A stretch of DNA of 64,000 bases from Terriglobia bacterium (GTDB lineage: Bacteria; Acidobacteriota; Terriglobia; JAIQFV01), in the NCBI GenBank assembly GCA_041494885.1, contig JBGQBO010000001.1, forward strand, positions 158,101-222,100. Reading direction: 5' to 3'. Position numbers and translations under genes: made by a program. Shown in pieces: positions 47,270 to 64,000 of this stretch (position 1 is its first letter; the number at the start of each line of letters is the position of its first letter). The notes beneath the pieces were generated by a model. That model was not told the DNA's origin and searched no databases. It was given only the letters and a program-made list of their open reading frames with translations.

Positions 47270-50200
47270 TTAATCTTTAATGATCTGCAATTGCTGGTCC
47301 CCCGCCTCCGATGGGACCTCCTCATCGACCTTCAACAACAGATGTCGATCCGCCTTGGCGAGCGGAATCGCGGACCCGTCATCAGCGAAAAAATTCAACC
47401 GGAGACTCTGCAAGGGGCCCGAGTTGAGAAAGAAAAATTGGGTCTTGTAGCCTCCCCCCTCGGTAATCTGGGGGAAGATCATAGAGGGTGAAGGAGATTG
47501 CCTTGCAATTCCCACGGGAAAAGTGGTGAGCAGAAAATCTCCCCGCGAATTGGTAAACGCTCGCATCGTCAGCACAGCAAAAGGCGTTGCTGACGAAAGG
47601 TCAACGACCCCGATGAACTCGTCAGGCAAGCCTCCCGGTATCAATTCCTCAAGAAACCGTGATTGATGGCCCATCGCGCTCACGTCGAGCGATCCGCTCC
47701 CGGCCCCACTCACTCCATTCCGCTCATACACATTGATGCCGACTCGCAGTGGAATCGGCCCCGGATTTGCCACCGCCAGTCCCGTGTCGTGCCCCTCCGA
47801 CTTGTCCACGAAGACCCGCGCATGTGTGGTCAGGGATGCGGAAGGGATTCCGGACTCGGTGACGACAACCCCACCCTGGGAATAACTCAAGACGCCCGCA
47901 CCGACCGGAGTTAGCCGCGCTGGGTCGGGGAGGACTTGAACCAACCCCGAGTTGACATGAGTCGGGGAGCCGTCAGTCTGAAAGACGTAGAGGCCGCCTG
48001 GAGGGATGGCATAGGGAAAAGACGAGTCTGCCCGCCCGTTGATCTGTTGAACCGTAAGCGATGATCCATTGTCCCCCAAGATCCGCAATTCCCCCGTTTC
48101 AAGCGTAGCCGATGGGTTCATCAGAATCAGTGTGGTCTTGTATCCGCCTCCGTCGACGAGGTGCGGAAAGTAGAGCGGATCGACTGCAGGTGCCTGACTC
48201 AGATCCGCGACTGGAGTGCTCGTCATTAATGCTTCACCGCGGGAGTTGTTCGTTAATCTCAACGCCAGCAGGGCAAGGGGCTGACTACTCTTGATTTCAA
48301 GCGTCCCAAACTGGATGGCGGAAGAAAAGTCGGGCGGAAAAACAAATCCGCGGGCAAGGTCGCTGAGCTGATCGATAAACCGTGACACGTGGCTATTCGC
48401 AAGGAGCGTTCCGAACCCAACCGCTAGCGGCGAACCATCGACGCCCCTCAGTGTAAACTTGACATCCGCCGAGAGGTTGTTTCCATTGACGATGGCAAGA
48501 CCTGTGTTGGTCTCGATCTTAGTGGCATCGAGACGACCTGTTTTTGCGGAAAAACTCGATCGGTAATCGATAAAAATCTGGGCCGCGGTCGTTGGCTGAG
48601 AGGGAGGTACTCCCACCTCACTCACCACGACTCCATTCTGAGTCAAGGCGAAGACCGCCGTCCCATAGGGGAGTGCCCCCGTCTTCGGGGACAACGTTGC
48701 ATAACCCGCCTGCGCCGCCCCTCCATTGCCTGAGGTAGCATGGATAGCCATTCCGGCGGCCGGAAGATCCAGATCTACTTCGGAGCTGCCGGGTGTAGAG
48801 AGGACGGAAATGATTCGGAAATCACTTGCCAACCCTGATCGATCCTGAAGTTGGACCTGGATCTGGCGCGTGTCGGCTAGGCGATTGGAGCCGGTAAAAG
48901 CAATCTCGGAAACAAATGAGGTCTTATTATCGACTCTCGTCCCGATGTCAAAGCTCCCCGTGCCCAAAACCTGTCCCTGCGCATCAAACCGGGTCTCGGT
49001 CAATCCGACCACGTCGCCTTGCCCATCCCTGCCATAGAACTGTATCCGGATCACTCCATTCGCAGAATCGGCTTGGAAACTTGCGGTCGCGGTGTCGAGG
49101 ATGGGGGGCCCGCTTTCAACGACGCCCCGGATCATCAGGTTGACCGGGGTTCCTTCATTCCACATCCTGGATCCCCCGAACGTCGCCCCGTTGTCCGTAG
49201 AAACATATCCCCCCTGTCTATCCGGGCCGCTCGAATCCAGGGCCGCAGAAACGGCCCCAGAGGCAGGGTACTGGAATCCGATGTACCAATCTCCCGAATC
49301 GATCGCAGGCCCGTTCACAATGGGGAAATCGACATATCCGTTATTGCCATGAATGACCGCCCACTGGTCGACCAGAAGAACGGGAGAATCCGGGGAACGA
49401 TTTGTGGCAGTACGATCGGTGAATGCGACCAAGCGTATTGATTGCCCCAGAGAACCCTGGGCATTCAAGTCCTGAGGGATAAAGATTCGAATGGCTTTCA
49501 ACTTTGAAGGATAGCGACGCGGTGTCAAACGGTTGACCACCATCAAGCCGGTCCCAGGCAAGCTGCTTTCCATCGATCCATCATCGACCAACAACTCCTC
49601 GGTCTTCAGCGCACTGGAAGGGTTCACCAGACTTGCCCGCAAGGCAAAACTGGTCTGGGAGTTGCTGCAGTTGGCCACGGCGATATAATAGGTTCCTGGA
49701 ACCAGGGGAGGAGTGGTCTGGTCGTTGACATAAAGGCTTTGATCGGGAAGAGTGGTCTCCGACTTGTAATCAGCGGTGATCCGTCCCCCCGCAAGAACAA
49801 CCGATTGATCCCGCCGCAAAAACAAATTCACGTTTTGATTCCCTGAGAGTGTGACAATGAGTTGCAGTGTGCCGGCGGGGACATCAATAGTGTATTGTGA
49901 AGGGCCGAGCGTGCAGGTGGTGGCCGAGGAACCGGGCGAAAGGACAGCGGAGGTCTGAACCCCCGAAACGAGATTCACGATTCCGGTATCCGACAGGTTG
50001 GAAGCGAAGCTTTGAACAAAAAGATCTCCATTGAAAGAACCCCAACCCGTCACCTGATCATAAGCGACCTCAGCGGAGAACCCCGGCACGGCGCCCGTGC
50101 TGTTGCTCCCGACTGTCACATCGTGAAACGTTTGGAGGCCGCCCGAAGTCAGCTGGGTCCGGCCCATTTCATAGATTCGGGTGTTCGCCAAACCGACGCC

Positions 50201-51658
50201 GTCACTGCTCGTCCCAGGAACGGCAACAACCTGATTGACTAAACCGAAAAGACCCGCCCACAAGGGAGCGCTCAAACTGGTTCCCCCAATGCAACATCGG
50301 AGGGTCCCTCCCTGGTACCAGTAAACACCCTGTTGGCCCGGATTTCCCATAGCCGCTACATCCGGGACATCCCGCATTCCATCCTTTGGAACCCCGGGAC
50401 CGAACTGGTAAGCGGGTTTTGCATAAAACTTCGATTTTCCTCCGCCGCTTCCACTCCAAGCCGTTTCCTCGCCATACTCAGTGACATTCCCATCAACATC
50501 GAGTACCGGATTGAGATTGGTCCCACCCACACAGGTGGCGTATGGTGAGGAACAAAGACGGTTCACGTCCGGGCCCGAACTGAGTTGAGAGCCCGCGGCA
50601 AACTGCTGAACTCCATTGTCACCGGACGCCACGAAAACCGATTGACCCTGGGAAGCCGCTTGCATGTAACGCTGGTCACTTTGAATCAGTGTCAGATCGG
50701 AAACCATGCTTTCCCCGCCGCCAAAACTGATGCTTACGACGTGCGACGAGGGAAGTCGGTTCACAATGTAATCGAGCGAAGGACTAATGCTGGCGTTGGT
50801 GGGAGCAATGACGACCTGAATGCTCGCTGCCGGAGCCATCGCCCCCGACCATTCGGCATCGAGCAAGACCTCCGTCACCTCGCTGGGGTTGCTCATCCCC
50901 GGATTTTGACCCGGAACCACAAATATCTTTTGGGGGTCGCTGGGGGGCAACCCGAAGAAATTGCGAAAAGCCTGGACATCGCCAATGTCGAAATCACTGC
51001 GCGCCACAATGGCAATGCTCTGCCCTGCTCCGTCGATCCCGATGTTATAGAGGGGGAGGAGGTTGTAGGCGCGATGAAGGTCAGCCGGCGCCATCGAAGT
51101 TCGTGTTCCGCTCCGGTAAAGGGGTTGCTCATCGGGAAAATTATCGAGGCCGAACACCCCCAGCGCACGGTCTTGAAATGGCTCCGAAATCTGCGGGGCG
51201 CGATCGTTGCCGTAAAACCGCTTCCCTTCAAACTCATACGTCCCCATACTAATCTTGAAGGCGCGTTCCACCTGCGCCACCGTCCCGTCAAAATACACCG
51301 AAAGCCGATTCGGATAGGCGTGCGTCACCACCATCCCATTCTGCTGCAGCCATCGAATGACACGTTGAAATTCATCCTCGGAAACTCCGAACCGCGCTCC
51401 AAATTCTTCCGGCGTCAGCCATCGATGATATTGGGCCGATCGGGGGTTCTGTTGTTCTTCCAGAAGCTGCTGCAATCCGGCCAGGTTCTGGATCCTGAAA
51501 GCGAGCAGCATCGACTTGAGTTCCATGGAGGGTTCCGCCCTGCTGACAAAGCGGCTCTGCTTCAAGAAAACCGGCGCCTTCTCTGCTGAGGGGTTGACTG
51601 AGGGTACGATCAAGAACGACAAGAACAGCAAAAGGAATGAAGAACGCTTCGAATTCAT
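47270..51658 (-). CDS. Sedolisin (S53) peptidase with about 1000-aa C-terminal tandem beta-rich domains
   Basis: Start at MNSKRSSFLLLFLSFL signal peptide (track ORF extends to 51823); pro-kumamolisin activation domain, catalytic GGTSLSAPLWAG serine motif; C-terminal two-thirds is repetitive Gly/Ser/Thr-rich domains. Confidence 0.75.
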   Translation of the reverse strand: MNSKRSSFLLLFLSFLIVPSVNPSAEKAPVFLKQSRFVSRAEPSMELKSMLLAFRIQNLAGLQQLLEEQQNPRSAQYHRWLTPEEFGARFGVSEDEFQRVIRWLQQNGMVVTHAYPNRLSVYFDGTVAQVERAFKISMGTYEFEGKRFYGNDRAPQISEPFQDRALGVFGLDNFPDEQPLYRSGTRTSMAPADLHRAYNLLPLYNIGIDGAGQSIAIVARSDFDIGDVQAFRNFFGLPPSDPQKIFVVPGQNPGMSNPSEVTEVLLDAEWSGAMAPAASIQVVIAPTNASISPSLDYIVNRLPSSHVVSISFGGGESMVSDLTLIQSDQRYMQAASQGQSVFVASGDNGVQQFAAGSQLSSGPDVNRLCSSPYATCVGGTNLNPVLDVDGNVTEYGEETAWSGSGGGKSKFYAKPAYQFGPGVPKDGMRDVPDVAAMGNPGQQGVYWYQGGTLRCCIGGTSLSAPLWAGLFGLVNQVVAVPGTSSDGVGLANTRIYEMGRTQLTSGGLQTFHDVTVGSNSTGAVPGFSAEVAYDQVTGWGSFNGDLFVQSFASNLSDTGIVNLVSGVQTSAVLSPGSSATTCTLGPSQYTIDVPAGTLQLIVTLSGNQNVNLFLRRDQSVVLAGGRITADYKSETTLPDQSLYVNDQTTPPLVPGTYYIAVANCSNSQTSFALRASLVNPSSALKTEELLVDDGSMESSLPGTGLMVVNRLTPRRYPSKLKAIRIFIPQDLNAQGSLGQSIRLVAFTDRTATNRSPDSPVLLVDQWAVIHGNNGYVDFPIVNGPAIDSGDWYIGFQYPASGAVSAALDSSGPDRQGGYVSTDNGATFGGSRMWNEGTPVNLMIRGVVESGPPILDTATASFQADSANGVIRIQFYGRDGQGDVVGLTETRFDAQGQVLGTGSFDIGTRVDNKTSFVSEIAFTGSNRLADTRQIQVQLQDRSGLASDFRIISVLSTPGSSEVDLDLPAAGMAIHATSGNGGAAQAGYATLSPKTGALPYGTAVFALTQNGVVVSEVGVPPSQPTTAAQIFIDYRSSFSAKTGRLDATKIETNTGLAIVNGNNLSADVKFTLRGVDGSPLAVGFGTLLANSHVSRFIDQLSDLARGFVFPPDFSSAIQFGTLEIKSSQPLALLALRLTNNSRGEALMTSTPVADLSQAPAVDPLYFPHLVDGGGYKTTLILMNPSATLETGELRILGDNGSSLTVQQINGRADSSFPYAIPPGGLYVFQTDGSPTHVNSGLVQVLPDPARLTPVGAGVLSYSQGGVVVTESGIPSASLTTHARVFVDKSEGHDTGLAVANPGPIPLRVGINVYERNGVSGAGSGSLDVSAMGHQSRFLEELIPGGLPDEFIGVVDLSSATPFAVLTMRAFTNSRGDFLLTTFPVGIARQSPSPSMIFPQITEGGGYKTQFFFLNSGPLQSLRLNFFADDGSAIPLAKADRHLLLKVDEEVPSEAGDQQLQIIKD

Positions 51659-52229
51659 TGCCGGTGGATTCCGCCTCCAGGTTGGCGCTCTTGTACCACA
51701 CCCCGCGTGAGCGCGCAAGTAAACAGCGTCGCCATGTTCAATGAAAATGTTTGCAGGAATGTCACTGCGAGCAGATTTTGAGAAATCACAACGGGGTCTT
51801 GCGTTGGCCAAAATGGGTCTCATGCCAGGAGAGCGTCACACTTTGGCGGGATGCAATCCCGATCTTAACCCCCATGAACCTGATCTCTAAATCATCCTGT
51901 TGCCCAAAGCCAGCATGTTTTCCGGTGGATAGAGTTAGTCCTGGGCTCAAGACGGTCATGAAATGGATTGGCTTTAGCAGTCGGGTGAATGCTGCTCACC
52001 TCGTCAGCCCTGGAGGCAGCCATGAGAAGGCCATTGGATGGAGACAGAAACGCATCCTTCCGTGATGTGCCGAATGCCTGCTGCCCGCCCTTATATTTTT
52101 TCCTCGCACACAAGGAGAATGATTTTACCCCTTAACTCTTGGGCTGGTTTTTGGGTATACTGTAAGCAAGAGGCTGAGAACTTCGACAACACGCTCTTCT
52201 GAACACGCAAGCGTATAGATCATACGCTC

Positions 52230-55200
52230 TTGCCAGAGCCGCTGGAGAACAACGAGATGAAGTGGTCCATTGAACACAAGGTGATTGTGGGTTTTGGACT
52301 TGCCTTGCTCATTCTGATGTTCATCAGCGTCATCTCCTACCGAACCACAACCCGCCTGGTTGAGAACACTCAGTTGGAGTCCCAGTCCTTTCAGCAACTG
52401 GAGTTACTCGTATCCTTGATGGCCCGATTAACGGATGCTGAATCCGGACAGCGCGGATACCTCATTTCGGGAGATGAACTTTATCTGGAGCCGTACAATA
52501 CTGCCACCGTTGTGATCGAACAGCAGATCGAAGATTTCAGGAAGTTGAATGATGACGATCCTGAAGAATTGCCGAGGATCGACGTCCTTCACTCCCTGGT
52601 TCGTCAGCGATTTCTCCTCCTCCAAAAATCGATCGATCTGAAGAAGGCGAACCCTTCGATTTCCCCCAATCAAATTGCCTTACCGGACGAGGGAAGGAAG
52701 GTCCACGATCAGATTCGAAAGTTAATTCTCGAAATGAAGGATCATGAGAATGAGGTGTTCATCGAGCGGTCGAAGGCAGAGAAGGTCACTGCTCGCAATG
52801 CCATCAGGGCCATCATCCTGGGAGGGCTTTTATCTTTCGCGCTGGTCGCCATCTCGATTGTGATCATCCGTCGTGACTTCGCCCAACGCAGCCGGGTCGA
52901 AGAATCACTTCGACGCCTCAGCGCGATCCTTGAGGCCACCCCTGACTTTGTGGGCACGGCCAACAAGCAGGGGCAGGTCCTTTCGGTAAACAAAGCTTGG
53001 CGGAAGATTCGTGGGATCGCCGAAGACGTCGATATCTCCGCGCTCCGCATCGCTGACTTCCATCCCCGATGGGCCACCGAGGTGATCAAGAAAGAGGCCA
53101 TCCCCACGGCGATTCGCGAAGGGACCTGGAGTGGCGAAACTGCCCTGTTGGGACGGGATGGGAGCGAAATCCCTGTCTCCCAGGTCATCATCGCTCACAA
53201 GTCGGAACAGGGAGAGGTGGTGTATCTATCGACCATCGCGCGCGATATCACAGAACGGAAACAGACGCAGCTCGCCCTGCAAAAGGCTCGCGACGAGATG
53301 GAAGTTCGCGTCGAGGAGCGCACCGCTGAACTGGCCAAGACGAATGCGTTGCTCCTCCGCACGAACCGGGCGCTGCGGATGATCAGCGAGTGCAATCAAA
53401 TTCTCGTCCACTCTGCCAACGAAAAAGCCCTGCTGAATGAAACCTGCCAGGCTCTCGTGGAGATCGGAGGGTATTGCCTGTCCTGGATTGGCTTTGCGCA
53501 GCAGGATGACAGGAAAAGCGTCCTTCAGGTGGCCTCGGCTGGAGATGAAGAAGCTTACGCGAAGTCCCTCGATTTGACCTGGGCCGACACTGGGCCCGGG
53601 CAAGGACCTACCGGGACGGCGATCCGCACGGGAACGCCTGCCATCGCGAACGACGTTCAGTCGGATCCGTTTTTCCTGCCCTGGCGGGAGGAGATCGTCA
53701 GGCGGGGGATCGCCTCGTCCATCGCTCTGCCTTTGACCCTCGACGGGAAAACTCTGGGGGCTTTGAATATTTATTCCAAAACGCCAGAGGCCTTTGACGT
53801 GGCCGAGGTCAACCTGCTCACGGAACTGGCGAGCGACCTGGTCTATGGCATCGCCACCTTCCGCGCCCGGGCCGAGCGTGAACGCATGGTGAATGCTCTT
53901 CAGGAGAGCGAGGAACGCTTCCGTCTGTTTGTCGTCGGCGTGGAAGATTATGCGATCTTCATGCTGGATCCGGAGGGACGCATTGTCAGTTGGAACACTG
54001 CGGCTGAGCGCATGAAGGGATATACCGCGGCGGAGATTATTGGCAAACATTTCTCTCTCTTTTACACGGCGACAGACCTTGAACACGACTGGCCCGGGCA
54101 CCTCCTGGAGGTGGCAAAGGCCAAGGGCTACGTGAAGGATGAAGGCTGGCGGCTGCGCAAGGACGGATCGCGGTTTTCAGCCGACGTGGTCATTACCGCC
54201 TTGCGTGAGAAGAATGGCTCCCTGCGCGGCTTTGCCGAGGTGACGCGCGACATCACGGAGCGCAAACGCGCAGAAGAAGAACTCAAATTCAGAAACCTCC
54301 TCCTCAATACGCAGCAGGAAGCAGCGATCGATGGAATCCTTGTCGTGGATGAAAACGGCAAGATGATTTCCTTCAACCAGCGGTTTGTGGAGATGTGGGG
54401 GATTCCGCGCGAGGTGATTGAGAGCCGGTCCGACGAGCGCGCCCTGAAGTCGGTGCTTGAAAGGCTGAATGAGCCGGACCAATTTATTAAGAAGGTAAAA
54501 TATCTGTACGAGCACCCGAACGAGACGAGCCAGGATGAGATTGCCCTTCGTGACGGAAAAATCTTCGATCGTTACTCCGCGCCGATGGTCGGAACCGACG
54601 GGAAGTATTACGGGAGGGTCTGGTATTTTCACGATGTCACTGAGCGCACGCGGATGGAGGAGGCGCTCAAGGGTTCGGAAAAGGGATACCGAAATCTCGT
54701 GGAGACCGCACTCGTGGGGGTCTATAAGATCAATATGCAGGGAGACATTCTTTATCTTAATGACGCTCTCGCGAGAATGTTGGGGTTTGTCTCCCCCGTC
54801 GAAATGATTGCCGACCACGCCCAGATGAGATTCAGGAATCCGAAGGACCGGGAAACACTCCTCGACCTTCTCCGGAGAAAAGGCCGGGTGGAGGGGTATG
54901 ACGCGGAGATTCTCACCAAAAAAGGGCAACCCAAGAACGTGATGATCAGCGCCATCCGCGAGGGGGACATCCTCTCGGGCATGGTGATTGACATTACGGC
55001 ACGCAAGCAGGCCGAGAAGGCCCTCTTGAAGAGCCAGGCGCGCCTGCAGCTTCAGATTGATCGCATGCCGATCGCGTGCATCGTTTGGAGTCCGGAATTC
55101 CGGGCTCTCTCGTGGAATCCCGCGGCAGAAAGAATTTTTGGCTTTGCAGCCAACGAAATCCTGGGGAAGGGCCCGTACGGGCTCATTGTGCAGAAGGGGA

Positions 55201-55412
55201 TCCAGCCCCAGGTGGAGGTGATTTGGGAACGTCTCCTGAAAGGCGACAGCGCGGCCCATAGTATCAATGAAAATCTTACCAAAGACGGCCGAACCATCCT
55301 CTGTGACTGGACCAATACCCCGCTGCTCGGAGAGGACGGCATCGTCGTCGGCGTTCTCTCGATGGTCCAGGATATAACAGAAAAATGGAAACCCCTGGAG
55401 GAGGTCCAGTGA
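52230..55412 (+). CDS. CHASE3 / multi-PAS / GAF sensor protein lacking any output domain
   Basis: 1060 aa; CHASE3 N-terminus with flanking TMs, then at least five PAS/PAC and one GAF; no H-box, HATPase, GGDEF, EAL or HTH found by eye. Confidence 0.7.
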   Translation: MPEPLENNEMKWSIEHKVIVGFGLALLILMFISVISYRTTTRLVENTQLESQSFQQLELLVSLMARLTDAESGQRGYLISGDELYLEPYNTATVVIEQQIEDFRKLNDDDPEELPRIDVLHSLVRQRFLLLQKSIDLKKANPSISPNQIALPDEGRKVHDQIRKLILEMKDHENEVFIERSKAEKVTARNAIRAIILGGLLSFALVAISIVIIRRDFAQRSRVEESLRRLSAILEATPDFVGTANKQGQVLSVNKAWRKIRGIAEDVDISALRIADFHPRWATEVIKKEAIPTAIREGTWSGETALLGRDGSEIPVSQVIIAHKSEQGEVVYLSTIARDITERKQTQLALQKARDEMEVRVEERTAELAKTNALLLRTNRALRMISECNQILVHSANEKALLNETCQALVEIGGYCLSWIGFAQQDDRKSVLQVASAGDEEAYAKSLDLTWADTGPGQGPTGTAIRTGTPAIANDVQSDPFFLPWREEIVRRGIASSIALPLTLDGKTLGALNIYSKTPEAFDVAEVNLLTELASDLVYGIATFRARAERERMVNALQESEERFRLFVVGVEDYAIFMLDPEGRIVSWNTAAERMKGYTAAEIIGKHFSLFYTATDLEHDWPGHLLEVAKAKGYVKDEGWRLRKDGSRFSADVVITALREKNGSLRGFAEVTRDITERKRAEEELKFRNLLLNTQQEAAIDGILVVDENGKMISFNQRFVEMWGIPREVIESRSDERALKSVLERLNEPDQFIKKVKYLYEHPNETSQDEIALRDGKIFDRYSAPMVGTDGKYYGRVWYFHDVTERTRMEEALKGSEKGYRNLVETALVGVYKINMQGDILYLNDALARMLGFVSPVEMIADHAQMRFRNPKDRETLLDLLRRKGRVEGYDAEILTKKGQPKNVMISAIREGDILSGMVIDITARKQAEKALLKSQARLQLQIDRMPIACIVWSPEFRALSWNPAAERIFGFAANEILGKGPYGLIVQKGIQPQVEVIWERLLKGDSAAHSINENLTKDGRTILCDWTNTPLLGEDGIVVGVLSMVQDITEKWKPLEEVQ

Positions 55413-55452
55413 CATGACGCCGCACTCGACAAGGGTCAGTGAAGGAGAGGAG

Positions 55453-56061
55453 ATGAGATTCGCAGGCAGAACGATCTCGGTCTTAATGGTGAGCCTAAGT
55501 ATGTTCGGAGGAAGCCTGCTGTATGCTGCGCAACCCGCACCGCCCACAACCGATCTGAGTAAATGGAACAGCGCCTCCGAATTGTTGGATGCCCAAGGTA
55601 ACCTTCTCACGAAGGTCACGGTCAGGAATGGAAAGATCGACTTCTCTCGAGCTCCCGGCCAAAGCCGTGAGGCGCTCCTGAAGGCGCTCTACGCATCGGG
55701 AGCCCGTCGTGTGTACAACTCTATCCTGAGCCCCCTTACCATTACTTCACAAGGCCGCCTGGGTGTGAATTTTGAAGGCCAGGGTGGGTTTCAAGCCCCC
55801 AGGGAAACCGATGACGGGTTCGATCTGGCAAATGGGGAAGGTTCGCAGATTCTAGATGCAACGGGGACACTTCTGGCCACGGTCACGACAACGGGTGGCA
55901 AACCCGCGTTAGTGTTCCCTCCTGAAAAGTCTCTCAAAACCCTATATGAAGAAGGCGTCCGATCCTTCTATTACAAATTTGAGCCCATCAAAGGCGAATT
56001 GAAACTGCACGGAGTCAAAATCGTCAAGGACGATAAGGGCGCGTTCATCTTGGAGCCCTAA
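55453..56061 (+). CDS. Hypothetical secreted protein
   Basis: Signal peptide MRFAGRTISVLMVSLSMFGGSLLYAA; starts 2 nt after the sensor stop (track ORF 55414..56061). Confidence 0.4.
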   Translation: MRFAGRTISVLMVSLSMFGGSLLYAAQPAPPTTDLSKWNSASELLDAQGNLLTKVTVRNGKIDFSRAPGQSREALLKALYASGARRVYNSILSPLTITSQGRLGVNFEGQGGFQAPRETDDGFDLANGEGSQILDATGTLLATVTTTGGKPALVFPPEKSLKTLYEEGVRSFYYKFEPIKGELKLHGVKIVKDDKGAFILEP

Positions 56062-56102
56062 TTTGGATATCGACAACGCTGAGAGTTCCAGGGAGGCTTC
56101 AC

Positions 56103-56267
56103 ATGCCAATCTACGAATTTGAATGTCTCAAGTGCAAAAAGATATTCTCGCTTGTGCTCTCGCTGGCCGAATACGAAAAGAAAAAGCCTGCGTGCCCCAA
56201 GTGTGGGAGCAAGCAGGTTGAGCAACTGGTCGAGCAATTTTTTGTGGTCACCTCCAAGAAGAGCTGA
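56103..56267 (+). CDS. FmdB-family zinc-ribbon protein
   Basis: 54 aa; MPIYEFECLKCKKIF...CPKCGS two CxxC pairs; below the ORF-track size cut-off. Confidence 0.6.
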   Translation: MPIYEFECLKCKKIFSLVLSLAEYEKKKPACPKCGSKQVEQLVEQFFVVTSKKS

Positions 56268-56645
56268 ACCTCGGCGGGAGGCCCTCGATTCTCCGTGTGC
56301 CGCAGGCATGCGCTTTTTGCACGGGTGCCGCAGGCGCGTCCGCCACGGCGGACATGCCTGCGAACCATCCCCCAACAAGGCTTCACTCCCGCCAAGTAAT
56401 CAGCCGGATCTCCCCTGCATCCGATAAGGTTCGGTGAAGGCTCGCGAGGGCCTTGATCCCAAGCGCACGCCCCGATGGACCGGGGCATGCGGCACCCAAG
56501 CTCAGTCCAAATACTCTCCCCTCCACGTCGTTGTTTAATCCATTGATTCAGATTTGCGGTCTGCCCGACATGCAATGGTCCCGGGGTCGACGCATGAAGC
56601 ACAAGAGCAGCGCGCGTCCCGGGGGTAAAAAATATGGAGGGAAAT

Positions 56646-56673
56646 TGGCTCCTGAGGCAGGGATCGAACCTGC
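56646..56673 (-). other. tRNA 3'-end fragment (T-arm GCAGG-TTCGATC-CCTGC plus acceptor CTCAGGA-G-CCA); probable att-site remnant at the island boundary
   Basis: Perfect T-stem/T-loop and acceptor 3' strand with encoded CCA. The upstream 46 nt cannot be folded into D or anticodon arms. Confidence 0.45.
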
Positions 56674-57530
56674 AACCCACCACGGTGGATTAACAGTTGC
56701 GGCGAGCGGATTCTCAAAATGTGTCACACTGTTCCATATGCTGTTCTTTTGTCGCTTGCTTATTGATGATTTCCCGCTCACCCCGTCTAATATCATCTGC
56801 CACCATTTCTGAGCGTGGTGGGGCACAAAATGGGACACAGTTTTTGTAGAGTGAGAATTCGCCCTGACCGGCCCATGACCCACCACCCATGCTCCCTCAT
56901 GGTCATCGCTCAATTTAGGGACTTTCTTCTTGAAGTTGTGTCCGGTAAGCTTTACACTTTTTCTCGGAAAGTTGCTCCCCCATGTCGGCCTTTGAACACA
57001 ATGACGATTGGCTGGCACTTGAAGCTTTCGATAAAACGATCCCATTCCCCGAACAGAGCGAAAAAGAAGTTGGGAAGCCGGAATCATTTGGTGTGGGAGT
57101 ATTCCACTCATGTCCTCATTTCATTGCGACACGCCGGCTTGCATCGGGGTTCTCAATCGGGATAGGAGGGGATTTTGCGGTCCGGCGGACATCCCGTGAA
57201 ATTCTGTAACGCGATTTCCGTCAAGGACTGCAGGACTTGTCTTAGCATGCAGAATGGGCTGTGTTTGTTTCGACGTTGCCGCCTGATTATGAATTAGGTG
57301 CACAAACGGCAGCCATTGGCCGCGTGAATTGATTGGTCATTTATGGGCAGTCTGTTGTGCAAGGACAAAATGTACATGGGAGCAATGATCACGTCCTGCT
57401 ACATTAGGCTGTGGAGACCGCAGTGTTTGGCTCTACGTGAGAGCAATCTAATACGGCTTCATGTATTAGATCGGCTTCAACACCATTGATCCACATGAAG
57501 GAGCACCTGCCACATAGGTCTGAGCAGCAC

Positions 57531-58463
57531 ATGAGCGGAGAGCGCGGGCCCGCTATTTTGAAACTGCGCCTCCCCACCAATTGGATCGTTCGCGAGCAAC
57601 CGACGAGCGACTATGGAATTGACGTTGAAGTGGAACTCGCCTCGGATACAGTAAGCGGCATCCTGTGCAAAGGCCAAGTCAAATCCAAGACTCCTATTGC
57701 TTGGCGGCAAGATGGCACTTTTCGCGAAGTCGTTGGGAAGAAGAAGCTGGTCTACTGGCAGATTCTCGCTCTGCCAGTTGTCGTATTTCTAGTCGACAAT
57801 ACCACGGAGGAGGTATTTTGGGCGCCGGTCACGTCATCAGCGCCCGCTGAGCTAGTGATTACAGACTCAGTGACGATCGAGAGGCGGATGAACCTTCCCC
57901 AAACAACAGATGCTCTCGAGCGCCATATACGAGGTTATGTCCATTATGCCACTGCGAAGCGGTCGCTGTACCGTCTTCCCGGCACATTGGAACGCTGGCA
58001 GCGCCGCCTTGAATCCACGGACCGGGATTTCTTTCTCCCCGTCGATGAAGAATTCTATCGCGAAACCCATGAATTCTTCGACGAGCTTTTGACCCTGCGC
58101 GAGGCCGTTGGACTTTCCAACGCTGACATCCTGCCATGGATCATTTGGACAGAGCGGTCCCGGTTATTCTTCCCTGACGGTGGCGGGTTGTTGTATTGGG
58201 GCATCTACGATGAGCTTGTCACGTACCTCAAACCTTTTATTGAAGAGACGGTCGAACGGGCGAAGACGCTGCTTGAGAGGGAAGACCCAACGCCTGCGAA
58301 TGCGGCAGCCAAAGCGTTAGTCGACAAGGAAAAGAGGGGGTATGCGGTCTCGTATCGATTTGACTTTGGTCTTCAGGACAGCTTGGACTGGAACAAGATT
58401 GAGCGCATCCTGGACGAAAAGGGTGCTTTGTTCATGCGAATGAAAAAGAAGCAACCAGTATAA
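57531..58463 (+). CDS. DUF4365-like restriction-endonuclease-fold protein with unknown C-terminal domain
   Basis: Start at internal Met MSGERGPAIL; N-terminus ...LPTNWIVREQPTSDYGIDVEVEL...ILCKGQVKSK...YWQILALPVVVFLVD matches the DUF4365 PD-(D/E)xK pattern (D-YGID-xExE...Q.K); about 200 aa C-terminal region with no recognised motif; lower GC than neighbours. Confidence 0.55.
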   Translation: MSGERGPAILKLRLPTNWIVREQPTSDYGIDVEVELASDTVSGILCKGQVKSKTPIAWRQDGTFREVVGKKKLVYWQILALPVVVFLVDNTTEEVFWAPVTSSAPAELVITDSVTIERRMNLPQTTDALERHIRGYVHYATAKRSLYRLPGTLERWQRRLESTDRDFFLPVDEEFYRETHEFFDELLTLREAVGLSNADILPWIIWTERSRLFFPDGGGLLYWGIYDELVTYLKPFIEETVERAKTLLEREDPTPANAAAKALVDKEKRGYAVSYRFDFGLQDSLDWNKIERILDEKGALFMRMKKKQPV

Positions 58464-58542
58464 GTGCCGAACGTGGTGTTGAAACCGACGCGAAAAGAAA
58501 GCGTGCGGCTGACAATCGGCGTTAGATTTATTAGGGGGCGCA

Positions 58543-59466
58543 GTGGAGTACGGTCTTACGCTAATGGTTTTGGGAGCACCGGAGTTCGTCCGAATATCGG
58601 AAGCGGATTATCAAACAATCATCGAGGCGAAACGTGGGTTGTTCGAGTGTCTTTATGTTGAAGAGAAGTTCGACCTTGTGGTCGAGAACTACTTCGAACT
58701 GGAGATATCCCTCCTCGAGTCGGCTGCAAATCATATGGTATTCGGCCGACTGGACTATCGTTACATCCAGGTCGAGCGAGGGTTGTACAATCGGCGACTC
58801 GCGAACCTCCTATCTGCTGGTCGGATCTATGCAGATCATGTGAAACAGCACATCGAGCGGATCTTTCCGCCCGACTCAAATAACGTTCAAGAATTGATTG
58901 CAAAGTTCAGTGAGCAATACGACAAACGACTGGGCTATCGTTCCATGGAAGCCCTTAGAAACTTCATACAGCATCGTGGGCTTCTCGTCCACTCGATGGC
59001 TTACAAAATCAAGCGAGTCAAGCGAACGGGAGAGGACGGGCTGCTCTTCATGGTCACCCCCTATCTAGTGCCAGAGGAACTGCGTGCTGATGGTGATTTC
59101 AAAATGGCAGTGCTTGAGGAGCTCGAGAGTCTCGGAGAAAAGATTGATTTGAAGGAGTTGGTTCGCGACTACATAGAGGGACTGTGGACCGTGCACGAGA
59201 AGATTCGCGAACGTATTCGCCCTTTGACCGAGGCATGGGATTATACGATGCGCAAGGCAGTAGGCCGCTTCCACTCAAACTATCCAGACAAAGATACGGC
59301 TGGTCTCGCAGCTGTCGCTCGCGATGCCGACGACCACTACCTGGATGCGATACCTGTGTTCACTGATTTCATAGAGTACCGTCAGAACTTGGAAGGGAAG
59401 AACAGAAATCTTGTCAACCTTGTGAACCGGTACGTGACGAATGAAGTCGTCGATAAGAAACTCTAA
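58543..59466 (+). CDS. Hypothetical protein, possible HEPN-like (Rx4H: RNFIQH)
   Basis: 307 aa, all-alpha prediction, ALRNFIQHRG motif; no other recognisable domain. Confidence 0.35.
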   Translation: MEYGLTLMVLGAPEFVRISEADYQTIIEAKRGLFECLYVEEKFDLVVENYFELEISLLESAANHMVFGRLDYRYIQVERGLYNRRLANLLSAGRIYADHVKQHIERIFPPDSNNVQELIAKFSEQYDKRLGYRSMEALRNFIQHRGLLVHSMAYKIKRVKRTGEDGLLFMVTPYLVPEELRADGDFKMAVLEELESLGEKIDLKELVRDYIEGLWTVHEKIRERIRPLTEAWDYTMRKAVGRFHSNYPDKDTAGLAAVARDADDHYLDAIPVFTDFIEYRQNLEGKNRNLVNLVNRYVTNEVVDKKL

Positions 59467-59542
59467 CCACTGCGTCCAGACTGTCGGGCGCTGCTGCGCC
59501 AGCCGCTGACGCCTGACGTTAGGCGCCCTCGGGGGGGTATCT

Positions 59543-60196
59543 ATGGCTCAAGATCTACTGAACAGTCTCGCGAATCCGATCATCGCGGTCGGAACACTCG
59601 TCACCGCAATCGCAACCCTTATTGTGGCCATCTACACGACGGGTCTTTGGCGCGAGATTAGGAAACAAAGGAAGGCGATGCAAAAGCCTATATTGGTAGC
59701 ATCCAGGCTTCCGAAAGACGTCGACAATTCTAAAAGCGTCTTTGTTGGCAATTTTGAGTACCCACGCTTTGACTCTTTTGAAACTTCTAGGCTCTACTAC
59801 CTTGGCTTAAAAAACATCGGTCAAGGTCACGCACTCAATGTGCGAGTAGATTCTCTCTTGGTAAATGGCAAGGGCATAGCAATCGGCATTCCGCCTGCGT
59901 GCCACGTTCAGGCTAACGAAACGGTCGCGCTGATAGCAAGATTTGGTTATAACGAACCCGTCTCTGATCTCGAACACAACCCATACCAAGTTGTCATTTC
60001 CTATAGTGATACAGAGGCCAACGAATATGTCTTAAATCTCAATCTCTGGTTCCCGTGGGCTGACCAAGAAGAGGCGATTCAAGCTGTTGTGCTCGGCTCA
60101 CTTGATTCCAGGGCTGAGTTCGGTGCGATCACCGGATCTCTGTCTCGTTATGCGGAATCAATGGGCTACTTCGAACTGCAGCGTCTCATTAGCTGA
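59543..60196 (+). CDS. Hypothetical membrane-anchored protein (single N-terminal TM)
   Basis: 217 aa; IIAVGTLVTAIATLIVAIYTTGLW TM then KQRK; no recognisable domain. Confidence 0.35.
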   Translation: MAQDLLNSLANPIIAVGTLVTAIATLIVAIYTTGLWREIRKQRKAMQKPILVASRLPKDVDNSKSVFVGNFEYPRFDSFETSRLYYLGLKNIGQGHALNVRVDSLLVNGKGIAIGIPPACHVQANETVALIARFGYNEPVSDLEHNPYQVVISYSDTEANEYVLNLNLWFPWADQEEAIQAVVLGSLDSRAEFGAITGSLSRYAESMGYFELQRLIS

Positions 60197-60376
60197 GGGA
60201 ATAATGAAAAGGCCACCGAACAAGATGATGAGACTGACGAAGCCGGAGCTGCACCCGTCGGCCCCGACGAGGCGCGGTTGATGATTTTCGGAAACGCTGA
60301 GATGCTCTGCACATGAGGGCCGATTATTCGCCAGGATGAAAACGCGGCGATGATTAGCGGGATGGAATAGAGAATC

Positions 60377-63300
60377 ATGCCAGAGAACCTGATAGAGCTT
60401 TACTTGACCGACATGGGAGAAATCCGAGGGACAGGATCTAACGTCCCGGAGACTTCGTTCTATCCAGCATTGGAAAGGCTGCTCTCCAGCATCGGAAAAG
60501 ACCTTTCTCCCAAGGTCCGCTGCGTCATCAACCTTTCCAACCGAGGCGCTGGCCTACCGGACGGCGGCTTGTTCTCCGCCGAGCAGTTCCGCCGCAAGAC
60601 GCGAGACGTGGTTCGCCGAGGCTCAACACAGGCGGACGCCAAGGAGAATCCGTTCCTGGTTCAGAACCCGTCGCGTGGCGTGATTGAAGCCAAGCCGCCG
60701 GCTGAGGATGTGCACCGGGTGGCCGGGAGCGAGCAGGTGGAGCGATACTGGAAGCGTTACGGCATGGTGCTCGTCACCAATTTCCGCGCCTTCGCCCTCA
60801 TCGGCAAAGGCCCAAACGGGCAGCCAAGCGCCCTGGAATCCTTCACGCTGGCCGAGTCCGAGAGTGAATTCTGGCGTCTGACCGCCCATCCTCGACGGGC
60901 GGCGGCAGAACACGGCGAACGCATGGTGGAGTATTTGAAGCGGGTGCTGCTCCATAATGCGCCACTGGCCGCTCCGCAAGACGTGGCCGGCATTCTTGCC
61001 TCCTACGCCCACGACGCGCGCCTGCGCATCGAAAAGGCTGACCTTCCAGCCCTGGCCACCCTCCGGCAGGCACTCGAAGATGCCCTTGGCCTGCATTTCG
61101 AGGGCGAGAAGGGCGAGCATTTCTTCCGTTCGACGCTCATCCAGACGCTTTACTATGGCGTCTTCTCTGCTTGGGTCTTGTGGGCGCGACAGCATGACGT
61201 CAACCGCGAAGAGAAGACTCGCTTCGCCGATGCCATCCGCGAGTCTGCGGCACCGTATACCGTCTCCGGCGGCTTTGACTGGCGCTCAGCCCACTTTCTT
61301 CTACGCGTTCCCATGCTCCGCGCCCTTTTCGTTCAAGTCGCCGACCCCGCCCGGCTAGGTGCGTTGGGGCTCATCGAAGCTCTCGATTGGACCGCCGCTG
61401 CCCTCAATAGAGTTGACCGCGACGAGTTCTTCAAATCCTTCGACGAGGGGCATGCCGTCCAGTATTTCTATGAGCCCTTCCTGCACGCGTTCGATCCCGA
61501 ACTGCGCAAGGAACTCGGCGTCTGGTACACCCCCGAAGAGATCGTTCGCTACCAAGTCGAACGCGTGGACGCCGTCCTCCGCTCTGAACTCGGTCTCGCC
61601 GATGGACTCGCGGACCCGAAAGTGATCGTCCTGGATCCCTGTTGCGGGACCGGCGCATATCTGCGGGCTGTCCTTCGCCGCATCGCTGTCACCCTGCATG
61701 ACAAAGGCGGCGATGCCCTTGTCGCGAACGATCTCAAGAAAGCCGCCATGGAGCGCATCTTTGGTTTCGAGATCCTGCCAGCGCCATTCGTCATTGCCCA
61801 TCTCCAACTCGGTCTGGAACTGGGAACACTCGGAGCGCCGCTGAGTGACCGCTGCGATCCGCCCGAACGAGCGGGCGTCTATCTAACCAACGCCCTCACC
61901 GGCTGGGAGCCACCCAAGGAAAAACCCAAACAGATAGCCTTCCCCGGTTTCGAGGACGAGCGCGACGCCGCCGGCGAGGTAAAGCAGAATAAGCCCATCC
62001 TCGTGATCCTCGGCAACCCGCCCTACAATGGATACGCGGGCATGGCTATGGATGAGGAACGCGACTTATCGAACGCATACCGCACGGCAAAGAAGGTCGC
62101 GACGCCGCAGGGCCAGGGCCTGAACGATCTCTATGTCCGCTTCTACCGCATGGCCGAACGCCGCATAGTAGAGAAGAACGGGCAAGGCATCGTCTCCTTC
62201 ATCTCAAATTATTCCTGGCTCGATGGTCTCTCTTTTACCGGCATGCGTGAACACTACCTCGCCGCCTTCGACCGCATCTGGATCGATAACCTGCATGGCG
62301 ACCGGATTATTTCCGAGTATGCGCCCGACGGCCACACCAGCGAAACCATTTTTGCCATCGAAGGCAACTCACCGGGGATTAAGATTGGCACGGCCATCAG
62401 CTTGCTCGTCAAGAGCGGCACGGGACAAGCCAAAGTCCTTTACCGCGACATGAACCAAGCTCGTGCCGCAGAACGCCGTTCCGCGTTGCTCGCCAGTCTT
62501 GAGGGCTACGAACCGTTGAAGCCCGTTCTCGAAATTGGCTTGCCGTTCAAGCCCCGAGTAGTCTCGAACGCGTACCTCGGCGGGCCGTTGCTTCCAAAGT
62601 TGTTTCCGATTTGGTTCCCTGGCGTGAAGACCAGCCGCGACGATGTGGTCGTGGACATTGACCGCGACCGGCTGGTGAACCGCATGAAAGAGTACTTCGA
62701 CCCGGAGATCACACACGAGCAGATGCGTCAAATTTCGCCATCAGCTATGACCAGCACCAACCGCTTCAAAGCGGAAGCGGTGCGCGATCAGCTCCGCAAA
62801 CGCGGTTTTCTTGCAAAGAACATCGTCCGTTACTGCTATCGCCCCTTTGACGTCCGCTGGCTTTACTGGGAACCCGAGACCAAGTTGCTCGACGAAAAGC
62901 GTAGCGAGTACTTCCTACACGCCGTCGAAGGGAACATCTGGCTCAGTGCCGGTCAGCGCAACCGCAAAGAAGACTTCTATCAGCCACAGGTCACCTCGTT
63001 ACTCGCCGATCACCACATCGTCGAGTCGAATGTGGGCATGTTCCCACTCTACCTGTACGCGCGGACAGAGCACGCGCTCCTGTTACAGCAAGCGGGCCGC
63101 AATCCGAACCTCACCGACGCGGTGGCGGCGTATCTCGCCGCGTTGAAGGCGACGCCTGAAGACCTGTTCTACCACACGCTGGCGATCCTACATGCCCCGG
63201 CCTACCGCGGGGAAAACGCCGGAGCCTTGCGCCAGGACTGGCCGCGGATACCGCTACCAGGGGGAAAGGATGCTCTGCTCGCCTCTCCCATGCTCGGGCG

Positions 63301-63793
63301 GGAGGTGGCAGCGTTGCTGGACACGGAGACGCTCGTGCCCGGCGTGACCGTTGGCAAGATTCGTGAGGACCTCAAGCACATCGCGGTCTTTCAGCGCCTG
63401 GACGGCAAACCGGCACGACCCGAAGCCGGCGACTTGGATCTGACCGCCGGCTGGGGCCACGCTGGCAAGGGCGGAGTGACTATGCCGGGCAAAGGGAAAC
63501 CTATTCGACGGGACGACGGCGCCAACGACATTTTTCTCAACGATATTGCTTCCTGGCGGAACGTACCCGAGGCGGTGTGGGAGTACACCATCGGCGGTTA
63601 CCAAGTCATCAAGAAATGGCTATCGTACCGGGAAAAGCCACTCCTTGGCCGTAGCCTGACCCCCGACGAAGTCCGTTATGTAACGGAAATGGCGCGGCGT
63701 ATTGCAGCGCTTGTCTCTTTGCAAGCCAAATTGGACGAGAACTACCGACTTGCGGTCAAGGCGATGCACAAATGGCCAATGCAGCACAAATGA
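60377..63793 (+). CDS. Type IIG/IIL-like restriction-modification enzyme (or PglX-like): gamma-class N6-adenine DNA methyltransferase in an 1138-aa polypeptide with possible N-terminal PD-ExK nuclease
   Basis: Motif I VLDPCCGTGAYL precedes motif IV ILGNPPYNGY (gamma order); N-terminal LPDGGLF...VIEAKPP could be a PD-(D/E)xK; about 500 aa C-terminal TRD-like region. Confidence 0.7.
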   Translation: MPENLIELYLTDMGEIRGTGSNVPETSFYPALERLLSSIGKDLSPKVRCVINLSNRGAGLPDGGLFSAEQFRRKTRDVVRRGSTQADAKENPFLVQNPSRGVIEAKPPAEDVHRVAGSEQVERYWKRYGMVLVTNFRAFALIGKGPNGQPSALESFTLAESESEFWRLTAHPRRAAAEHGERMVEYLKRVLLHNAPLAAPQDVAGILASYAHDARLRIEKADLPALATLRQALEDALGLHFEGEKGEHFFRSTLIQTLYYGVFSAWVLWARQHDVNREEKTRFADAIRESAAPYTVSGGFDWRSAHFLLRVPMLRALFVQVADPARLGALGLIEALDWTAAALNRVDRDEFFKSFDEGHAVQYFYEPFLHAFDPELRKELGVWYTPEEIVRYQVERVDAVLRSELGLADGLADPKVIVLDPCCGTGAYLRAVLRRIAVTLHDKGGDALVANDLKKAAMERIFGFEILPAPFVIAHLQLGLELGTLGAPLSDRCDPPERAGVYLTNALTGWEPPKEKPKQIAFPGFEDERDAAGEVKQNKPILVILGNPPYNGYAGMAMDEERDLSNAYRTAKKVATPQGQGLNDLYVRFYRMAERRIVEKNGQGIVSFISNYSWLDGLSFTGMREHYLAAFDRIWIDNLHGDRIISEYAPDGHTSETIFAIEGNSPGIKIGTAISLLVKSGTGQAKVLYRDMNQARAAERRSALLASLEGYEPLKPVLEIGLPFKPRVVSNAYLGGPLLPKLFPIWFPGVKTSRDDVVVDIDRDRLVNRMKEYFDPEITHEQMRQISPSAMTSTNRFKAEAVRDQLRKRGFLAKNIVRYCYRPFDVRWLYWEPETKLLDEKRSEYFLHAVEGNIWLSAGQRNRKEDFYQPQVTSLLADHHIVESNVGMFPLYLYARTEHALLLQQAGRNPNLTDAVAAYLAALKATPEDLFYHTLAILHAPAYRGENAGALRQDWPRIPLPGGKDALLASPMLGREVAALLDTETLVPGVTVGKIREDLKHIAVFQRLDGKPARPEAGDLDLTAGWGHAGKGGVTMPGKGKPIRRDDGANDIFLNDIASWRNVPEAVWEYTIGGYQVIKKWLSYREKPLLGRSLTPDEVRYVTEMARRIAALVSLQAKLDENYRLAVKAMHKWPMQHK

Positions 63794-64000
63794 AGAAAGC
63801 CACCCCAAGAATGGGATGCAATGATGATCCTGGGATCGCATCTTTGCATTTGGTCTTGTAAGGGTGGGAAGCCATGGAGGGATGATGAAACCTCGCGGGC
63901 GATGGTTTCCTCTTTTGTGACGGGAGGATGAGATATAGGCGCGTCAATTCTGGCGCTAGGAATCCCCATGTGAGAGAATTCGAATCGCCGCAGCAAACTT

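Follow-up and report, generated by a model that had tools for sequence, protein, structure and literature searches.

In this study, the right-hand end of a 64,000-nucleotide stretch of DNA from a soil bacterium of the Terriglobia (Acidobacteriota) was analysed (assembly GCA_041494885.1, contig JBGQBO010000001.1, positions 158,101 to 222,100; hereafter the window). From about 56.3 kb onwards, a conserved chromosomal flank is followed by a 3' fragment of a tRNA-Asn(GTT) gene, a non-coding arm and four genes, which encode a DUF4365 protein, a HEPN-like protein of 307 residues, a protein of 217 residues and a restriction-modification (RM) enzyme of 1138 residues (Table 1). Two further contigs were found through the 1138-residue protein, namely a Logan contig (L002) and a 307-kb metagenome contig of the Joint Genome Institute (L001). 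The L001 contig, on which a coordinate equals the window coordinate minus 50376, differs from window 50377-64000 at one base only (window 52854) and continues to an intact tRNA-Asn gene beyond the window. Given this near-identity, the window is probably a sister assembly from one and the same population. In metagenome-assembled genomes (MAGs) at NCBI, the flank proteins are labelled Terriglobia bacterium. The region from 56.3 to 64.0 kb of the window is probably the left 7 kb of a tRNA-Asn(GTT) island or integration hotspot of about 15.9 kb, which would be decayed or dependent on factors acting in trans and is loaded with defence genes.

An earlier note, made from the sequence of the window alone, had described a remnant of a tRNA T arm and acceptor at 56646..56673 on the minus strand and had predicted that the intact tRNA would lie past 64000. 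The remnant was confirmed and proved to be longer than noted, extending over 56646-56696. The part first described reads GCAGG-TTCGATC-CCTGC-CTCAGGA-G-CCA, that is, a perfect T arm, the acceptor 3' strand, the discriminator and CCA, and CTGTTAA, the Asn anticodon loop, stands at the start of the fragment. The degenerate pattern of the tRNA fragment was matched once in 64 kb, against a chance expectation of 0.00 obtained from shuffled sequences. No complete tRNA was detected in the window by ARAGORN or Rfam, and the intact tRNA-Asn was found past its end on L001, in the same orientation as the fragment, as the note had foreseen. The fragment and the intact gene form a direct repeat with a spacing of 15,865 bp (family D11, 39 nt at 87%); both lie on the minus strand, with the 3' fragment downstream of the intact gene in the tRNA's own direction. 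Moreover, both repeat copies contain the anticodon loop, GGGTTG, AGGTTCGA and CCTCAGGAGCCAA.

The comparison of close relatives demonstrated that the DNA next to this fragment varies. In the MAG contig L008 (GCA_041490505.1), the flank is 97.65% identical over 5,958 bp (blastn, L001 1-5957) up to window 56333. The same tRNA-Asn fragment follows at the same place, together with about 0.2 kb of the adjacent arm at only 78.5%, and beyond the arm stand an insertion sequence (IS) and then wholly different genes, encoding a 1270-residue protein, DUF6946, FRG and AAA_18. The IS lies at about 11519-13071 of L008 and has a 443-residue HTH_23/28/32 transposase, inverted ends of about 47 nt and the flanking direct repeat CGCAAGACATTTCACT. 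The L003 contig is 94% identical up to window 56569 (L001 6193), 77 nt from the fragment end; past that point, it carries unrelated DNA that includes a 149-residue membrane open reading frame (ORF), and the tRNA fragment is absent from it. The contig L010 stops just past the zinc-ribbon gene. Three closely related genomes thus present three different states, and the locus varies between strains that share a 94-98% identical left flank. The zinc-ribbon gene is the last gene of the conserved flank and lies outside the island.

The stretch of about 1.2 kb without a clear gene that had been noted to the left of the DUF4365 gene is real, and no believable gene was found in 56270-57530. On the island side of the fragment, this stretch contains the non-coding arm, in which L001 6266-6470 matched L008 11259-11463 at 78.5% and L001 6598-6676 matched L008 13131-13210 at 77.5% by blastn. 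When the IS was removed from L008, the arm was conserved block-wise over about 0.45-0.5 kb, with indels that are not multiples of three. A minus-strand ORF of 179/187 residues across the tRNA piece had no Pfam, PADLOC or NCBIfam match, and indels of lengths not divisible by three likewise separate its DNA from that of L008. A small ORF in the arm (56982-57209, plus strand) was considered as a conserved gene and rejected, as L008 has no start codon and a 1-nt indel there. The arm may hold recombinase, regulator or promoter sites.

Table 1. Features of the tRNA-Asn locus, in window coordinates (contig coordinates are named as such)
Feature	Position	Strand	Evidence	GC
Zn_ribbon_8 (FmdB-type) gene, 54 aa	56103..56267	+	Pfam PF09723; conserved in L003, L008 and L010	
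Left comparative boundary	56333..56366	.	L008 identity 97.65% before, about 60-80% beyond, in short weaker pieces	
About 75 nt directly 3' of the fragment, resembling the 75 nt 3' of the intact tRNA-Asn	56570..56645	-	Block CTTGTGCTTCAT; alignment	
tRNA-Asn(GTT) 3' fragment, displaced-type, anticodon loop to CCA	56646..56696	-	Sequence reading; repeat family D11; shuffle test	
Non-coding arm, island side of the fragment	56697..57096	.	Block conservation with L008 11310-11518 and 13088-13260	
DUF4365 protein, 310 aa	57531..58463	+	Pfam PF14280, 3e-13; PADLOC Aga_REase, 4e-12	0.533
HEPN-like protein, 307 aa	58543..59466	+	RNFIQH motif; model; HEPN_LA2681 match of one family member	0.501
Small membrane-anchored protein, 217 aa, one N-terminal hydrophobic helix	59543..60196	+	Translation	0.488
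Single-chain type IIG/IIL RM enzyme, 1138 aa	60377..63793	+	PADLOC REase_MTase_IIG, 1e-96; Pfam Type_ISP_C, 7e-52, N6_Mtase, Eco57I	0.601
DUF3800 gene	beyond the window			0.476
Intact tRNA-Asn(GTT)	L001 22135-22209 (window-equivalent 72511-72585)	-	Rfam, 74.4 bits	

The large methyltransferase/nuclease of RM type that had been noted at the right end of the window is present, and its sequence indicates an intact enzyme of the IIG/IIL type that is closest to DrdV and MmeI. In the protein, a PD...ExK nuclease at the N-terminus is joined to a gamma-class N6-adenine methyltransferase and to a target recognition domain of the Type-ISP-like kind, and the motifs D62, E104, K106, DPCCGTG (420-425) and NPPY (547-550) show no variation among 18 homologues. 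Among solved structures, those of DrdV (7lo5, 5e-36), LlaGI and LlaBIII are the closest, the matches to the latter two covering the methyltransferase and target recognition parts only. The homologues carry the type ISP name at NCBI, and the enzyme shares Type_ISP_C with the type ISP enzymes LlaGI and LlaBIII. However, it is without their helicase/translocase between the nuclease and the methyltransferase, and no Pfam match to a helicase domain was found in the 1138 residues; it was therefore assigned to type IIG/IIL and not to type ISP. As in the type IIL/IIG enzymes MmeI and DrdV, the nuclease, the NPPY adenine methyltransferase and target recognition are joined in one polypeptide. The enzyme is predicted to methylate the host's own recognition sites and to cut unmodified incoming DNA. 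Its family has at least 8000 members, and MAGs labelled Deltaproteobacteria and Nitrospirota contain 73-81% identical homologues, an indication of horizontal spread between phyla.

The DUF4365 protein consists of an N-terminal DREN-type PD-(D/E)xK domain and a helical C-terminal domain. In the structural model, the N-terminal 135 residues or so matched the DREN-APAZ chains of SPARDA (Foldseek, E 4e-7), and the residues D27, D31, E35 and Q49, followed by K/R (a QxK/R motif), are invariant. SPARDA is composed of a short prokaryotic Argonaute and a DREN-APAZ protein (PMC10810196, PMC12205087). The DUF4365 protein shares with this system the DREN/DUF4365 nuclease fold and the conserved acidic residues, but differs in that it has no match to an APAZ domain, no Argonaute gene beside it or elsewhere in L001 and a helical C-terminal half for which Foldseek structural comparison gave no match. 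The family is small, with 11 homologues only, which adjoin Phage_integrase genes in two of three neighbourhoods. On the basis of its sequence and model, the protein is a candidate standalone nuclease effector.

The 307-residue protein is one of at least 127 unannotated proteins, each about 300 residues in length, that make up its family. Its model (predicted local distance difference test score 93.7) is a helical bundle with beta hairpins, and R139 and H144 are invariant in the family within the RNFIQH motif (R-x4-H). The structural matches included a HEPN toxin among otherwise generic bundles, and one family member matched Pfam HEPN_LA2681 at 6e-4. With the LA2681-like HEPN proteins (PF18733), the protein has in common the helical-bundle core, the R-x4-H motif and occurrence in mobile or defence contexts; it is thus predicted, with moderate confidence, to be a HEPN-type RNase of the LA2681-like kind. 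One homologue lies in a Citrifermentans island together with an integrase, a TIR protein and a Gabija-like OLD/UvrD pair, others stand beside HicB in Nitrospira, and nine were found on IMG/VR viral contigs. The 217-residue protein had no Pfam, PADLOC or NCBIfam match and a weak PHROG match to its N-terminus only.

The earlier note had also described a change of base composition from about 56.3 kb and three genes of lower GC. Left of 56 kb, the GC content in 1-kb windows is 0.550 +/- 0.019. The 56.5-57.5 kb region and the genes for the 307- and 217-residue proteins are indeed low (0.49-0.51), but the DUF4365 gene, which is the remaining one of the three, is near the average, the RM gene is high and the island as a whole equals the background. 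The GC content at third codon positions is clearly low only in the genes for the 217-residue protein, the 249-residue protein beyond the window and DUF3800; in the window part of the island it is lowest in the first of these, at 0.518 against 0.60-0.71 in the flank genes. Composition changes from gene to gene, as a mosaic, rather than shifting as a whole. A foreign origin of the cargo is supported by the inter-phylum homologues of the RM enzyme and by gene GC values that range from 0.476 to 0.601 against 0.550 +/- 0.019.

Beyond the window, the island continues on L001 with genes for a 249-residue protein, a 507-residue protein, an HTH_3 protein, a trypsin-tetratricopeptide repeat (TPR) protease and DUF3800, for which weak domain-level PADLOC matches only were obtained. 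The 507-residue ORF was considered as an integrase and rejected; it had no PDB sequence match and is unlike the 494-residue protein of the Citrifermentans island, a weak integrase match. The protease gene contains five tandem 102-nt repeats at L001 18836-19541 (window-equivalent 69212-69917), which correspond to 34-residue TPR repeats. A 1.7-kb non-coding mosaic of local repeats (L001 20460-22135, window-equivalent 70836-72511) separates the DUF3800 gene from the intact tRNA-Asn; its units, about 210-245 nt long, are 86-90% identical and absent from window 1-64000. One copy gave a sub-threshold Rfam match to the Acido-Lenti-1 RNA (25 bits, the gathering score being 37; E 0.06), and no convincing second, inner tRNA fragment was found in the mosaic. 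In addition, 202 nt at the HTH gene's 3' end are framed by a 31-nt inverted repeat, 97% complementary (L001 17205-17235 and 17438-17468, plus strand). Its motif, GGG(C)TCAGATC(C/G)GGA(C/T), recurs at L001 20470, 20885 and 21783, at the starts of repeat units near the tRNA, and the inverted repeat looks like a miniature inverted-repeat transposable element (MITE) confined to the island's right half.

The tRNA and fragment signature, the variability between strains and the foreign-looking cargo together support a tRNA-Asn island with defence genes, which we consider the likely nature of the locus. In the Islander approach, a tRNA gene and a displaced fragment of it mark the ends of an island (PMC4383910). 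At the present locus, the intact tRNA and its cognate fragment lie on one contig (L001), and the fragment is an end fragment on the correct side and in the same orientation, outside any conserved protein domain. The interval of 15.9 kb falls within the range of 2-200 kb, and the start at the anticodon loop (anticodon-centred) and the strain-variable accessory genes are likewise features shared with such islands. Within the Enterobacteriaceae, the Yersinia high-pathogenicity island is an example of an island at asn-tRNA. One or more tRNA-targeting elements have left the usual signature here, with the intact tRNA-Asn at one end and the repeat of its 3' part (56570-56696) at the other. The original insertion may have been carried out by a tyrosine integrase at an anticodon-centred or T-arm site, and the integrase may since have been lost or may act in trans, so that the interval would now be an immobile or dependent remnant. 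Its content may have been turned over through further IS and MITE-like insertions and through homologous recombination in the conserved flanks.

Several observations weigh against the reading as a tRNA-Asn island. The tRNA-proximal end is the usual place of an integrase gene, and the earlier note had placed an integrase past 64000. However, Pfam, PHROGs and PADLOC searches of the island ORFs of at least 70 residues revealed no tyrosine or serine recombinase between the repeats, and a six-frame Pfam scan of the 1.7 kb by the intact tRNA (L001 20400-22140) gave no match at E up to 1, so that the predicted integrase was found neither as a gene nor as a remnant. The interval accordingly does not pass the integrase filter of Islander. 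Moreover, the fragment is not an exact copy of the present gene. Only 24 of the 28 positions for which an exact match had been expected agree; the T stem is GCAGG/CCTGC in the fragment and GTAGG/CCTAC in the intact gene, which is a compensatory pair, and two bases of the T loop differ. The fragment has TCCACCGTGGTGGGTT at the position of CCGAAGGGTT in the intact gene, and a 16-nt near-palindromic segment replaces the 10 nt of the anticodon-stem 3' strand and variable loop, which gives 6 extra nt and leaves the anticodon-stem strand unpaired with the present 5' half. The T-stem, T-loop and TCCACCGTGGTGGGTT/CCGAAGGGTT differences show that the fragment did not arise simply by displacement of the present gene's 3' half. 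The same odd structure is also conserved in L008, where the segment forms a perfect 18-nt palindrome, AATCCACCGCGGTGGATT, that is imperfect in the window, and where the T arm is as in the intact L001 gene; by blastn, the intact tRNA region (L001 22066-22164) matched L008 11193-11292 at 81%. Furthermore, the repeat reaches about 75 nt past the CCA, longer than the usual identity block of attachment sites, and a 0.5-kb arm is common to differing cargo; both features, like the identity of 87% over 39 nt, the 6-nt insertion, the compensatory T-stem change and the absence of an integrase, distinguish the locus from typical Islander islands. The GC content of the whole island (0.549 against 0.550) shows no net shift. 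No empty site, in which the zinc-ribbon gene would directly precede the intact tRNA-Asn, was present among the contigs recovered. Genome and metagenome contig scans with the 215-residue flank protein yielded L003 and the short L004 alone, no contig beyond those already known came from an exact look-up of the zinc-ribbon protein, and viral contigs scanned with the fragment and arm sequence gave 0 matches. The synteny comparison proposed in the earlier note thus established that the locus differs between close relatives, and it recovered no relative in which the island is absent. The informative relatives are three, all of them MAG or metagenome contigs in which assembly artefacts are possible. 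The missing integrase, the divergent yet structurally conserved fragment of L001 and L008 and the shared arm suggest that what is left is an island that has decayed or depends on factors in trans, or else an integration hotspot of long standing, reshaped by homologous recombination and small transposable elements.

The same observations bear on the proposal that the interval is a recombination-driven defence hotspot that was never one integrative element. The fragment and the 0.5-kb arm would then be a scar of the locus, old and fixed, or else serve as its functional landmark, and the cargo would be swapped by homologous recombination in the flanks and by IS and MITE insertions, with no integrase acting on the present cargo. 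The lack of an integrase, the mosaic composition, the different neighbourhood that every cargo gene has elsewhere, the IS in L008 and the MITE-like repeats in L001 agree with this proposal, as do the fragment and arm that L001 and L008 share despite unrelated cargo and the fall of the L008 identity about 300 nt before the fragment and not at it. However, a 3' tRNA fragment with the right orientation and configuration is the specific product of integrase action (PMC4383910), and L003 is without the fragment, which is hence not fixed in the lineage. A hotspot of this origin, which we regard as unlikely, accounts for the turnover, but it leaves unexplained how the repeat arose. There is strong overlap between this proposal and the explanation as a decayed tRNA-Asn island, and the two differ mainly in emphasis.

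The similarity that extends about 75 nt past the tRNA 3' end in both copies, together with the compensatory T-stem difference, which suggests a once-functional tRNA ancestor, could also be explained by an old tandem or segmental duplication, in which case the fragment would be a decayed second tRNA-Asn unrelated to mobile DNA and the genes between would be ordinary lineage-specific ones. This origin is very improbable, as the 3' part alone survives and starts exactly at the anticodon loop, the interval is wholly different between genomes with 94-98% identical flanks, and the cargo is of a typical mobile and defence kind with inter-phylum homologues at 73-81%. A further explanation concerns the cargo itself. 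All four genes are on one strand, the gaps between them are short (77-181 nt), and they might form one new multi-gene defence system. There is hardly any likelihood of this, since the family sizes are unequal (at least 127 members for the 307-residue protein against 11 homologues for DUF4365) and the characterised relatives of the RM enzyme, whose family counts at least 8000 members, work as single chains. In six homologue neighbourhoods, no recurring partner gene was found, which indicates that the cargo genes are independent and not an operon-level system; a conserved operon of the DUF4365, 307- and 217-residue proteins was rejected from the same neighbourhoods.

The cargo of the probable tRNA-Asn island is of defence type, with one clear system, the RM enzyme, and two nuclease candidates, the DUF4365 and HEPN-like proteins. 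As in defence islands and hotspots, an RM gene stands beside single-gene nuclease candidates at a variable locus, with IS and MITE-like repeats nearby; the term serves as a description, without a strict threshold, and here the RM enzyme alone comes from an experimentally established defence family. The horizontally acquired defence island that the earlier note held to be probable was borne out in its intact tRNA, strain variability and RM and nuclease candidates, and not in the expected integrase and GC shift. More speculatively, the fragment, its near-palindrome (AATCCACCGCGGTGGATT in L008) and the 0.5-kb arm might be an integrase-less docking module at which a recombinase encoded elsewhere swaps the cargo, and, separately, the DREN-domain protein and the 307-residue family might be new single-gene anti-phage systems; we hold this to be decidedly unlikely. 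If the docking module were true, the site, far from being a dead island, would be a cassette-like hotspot of defence genes in an acidobacterium.

The island is an ordinary kind of feature, and it leaves the current understanding of genomic islands unchanged. The analysis provides a precisely mapped variable locus at tRNA-Asn in Terriglobia, and, to our knowledge, few mobile elements have been described in this soil phylum. The intact tRNA past the window was predicted correctly from the sequence alone. Moreover, two unannotated families, the standalone DREN nuclease and the HEPN-like family of about 300 residues, were flagged as defence candidates.

The left flank common to the relatives comprises an M28 peptidase, a sedolisin-like protein of 1462 residues, a CHASE3-GAF-PAS sensor, the 215-residue protein and the zinc-ribbon protein. 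The sedolisin-type protein (Pro-kuma_activ; window 47270-51823, minus strand) is very large, with 1462-1517 residues. The sensor is a CHASE3-GAF-multi-PAS protein of 1060 residues (window 52230-55412, plus strand) that ends in PAS, without a recognisable output domain. The 215-residue protein directly follows the sensor and is specific to this lineage.

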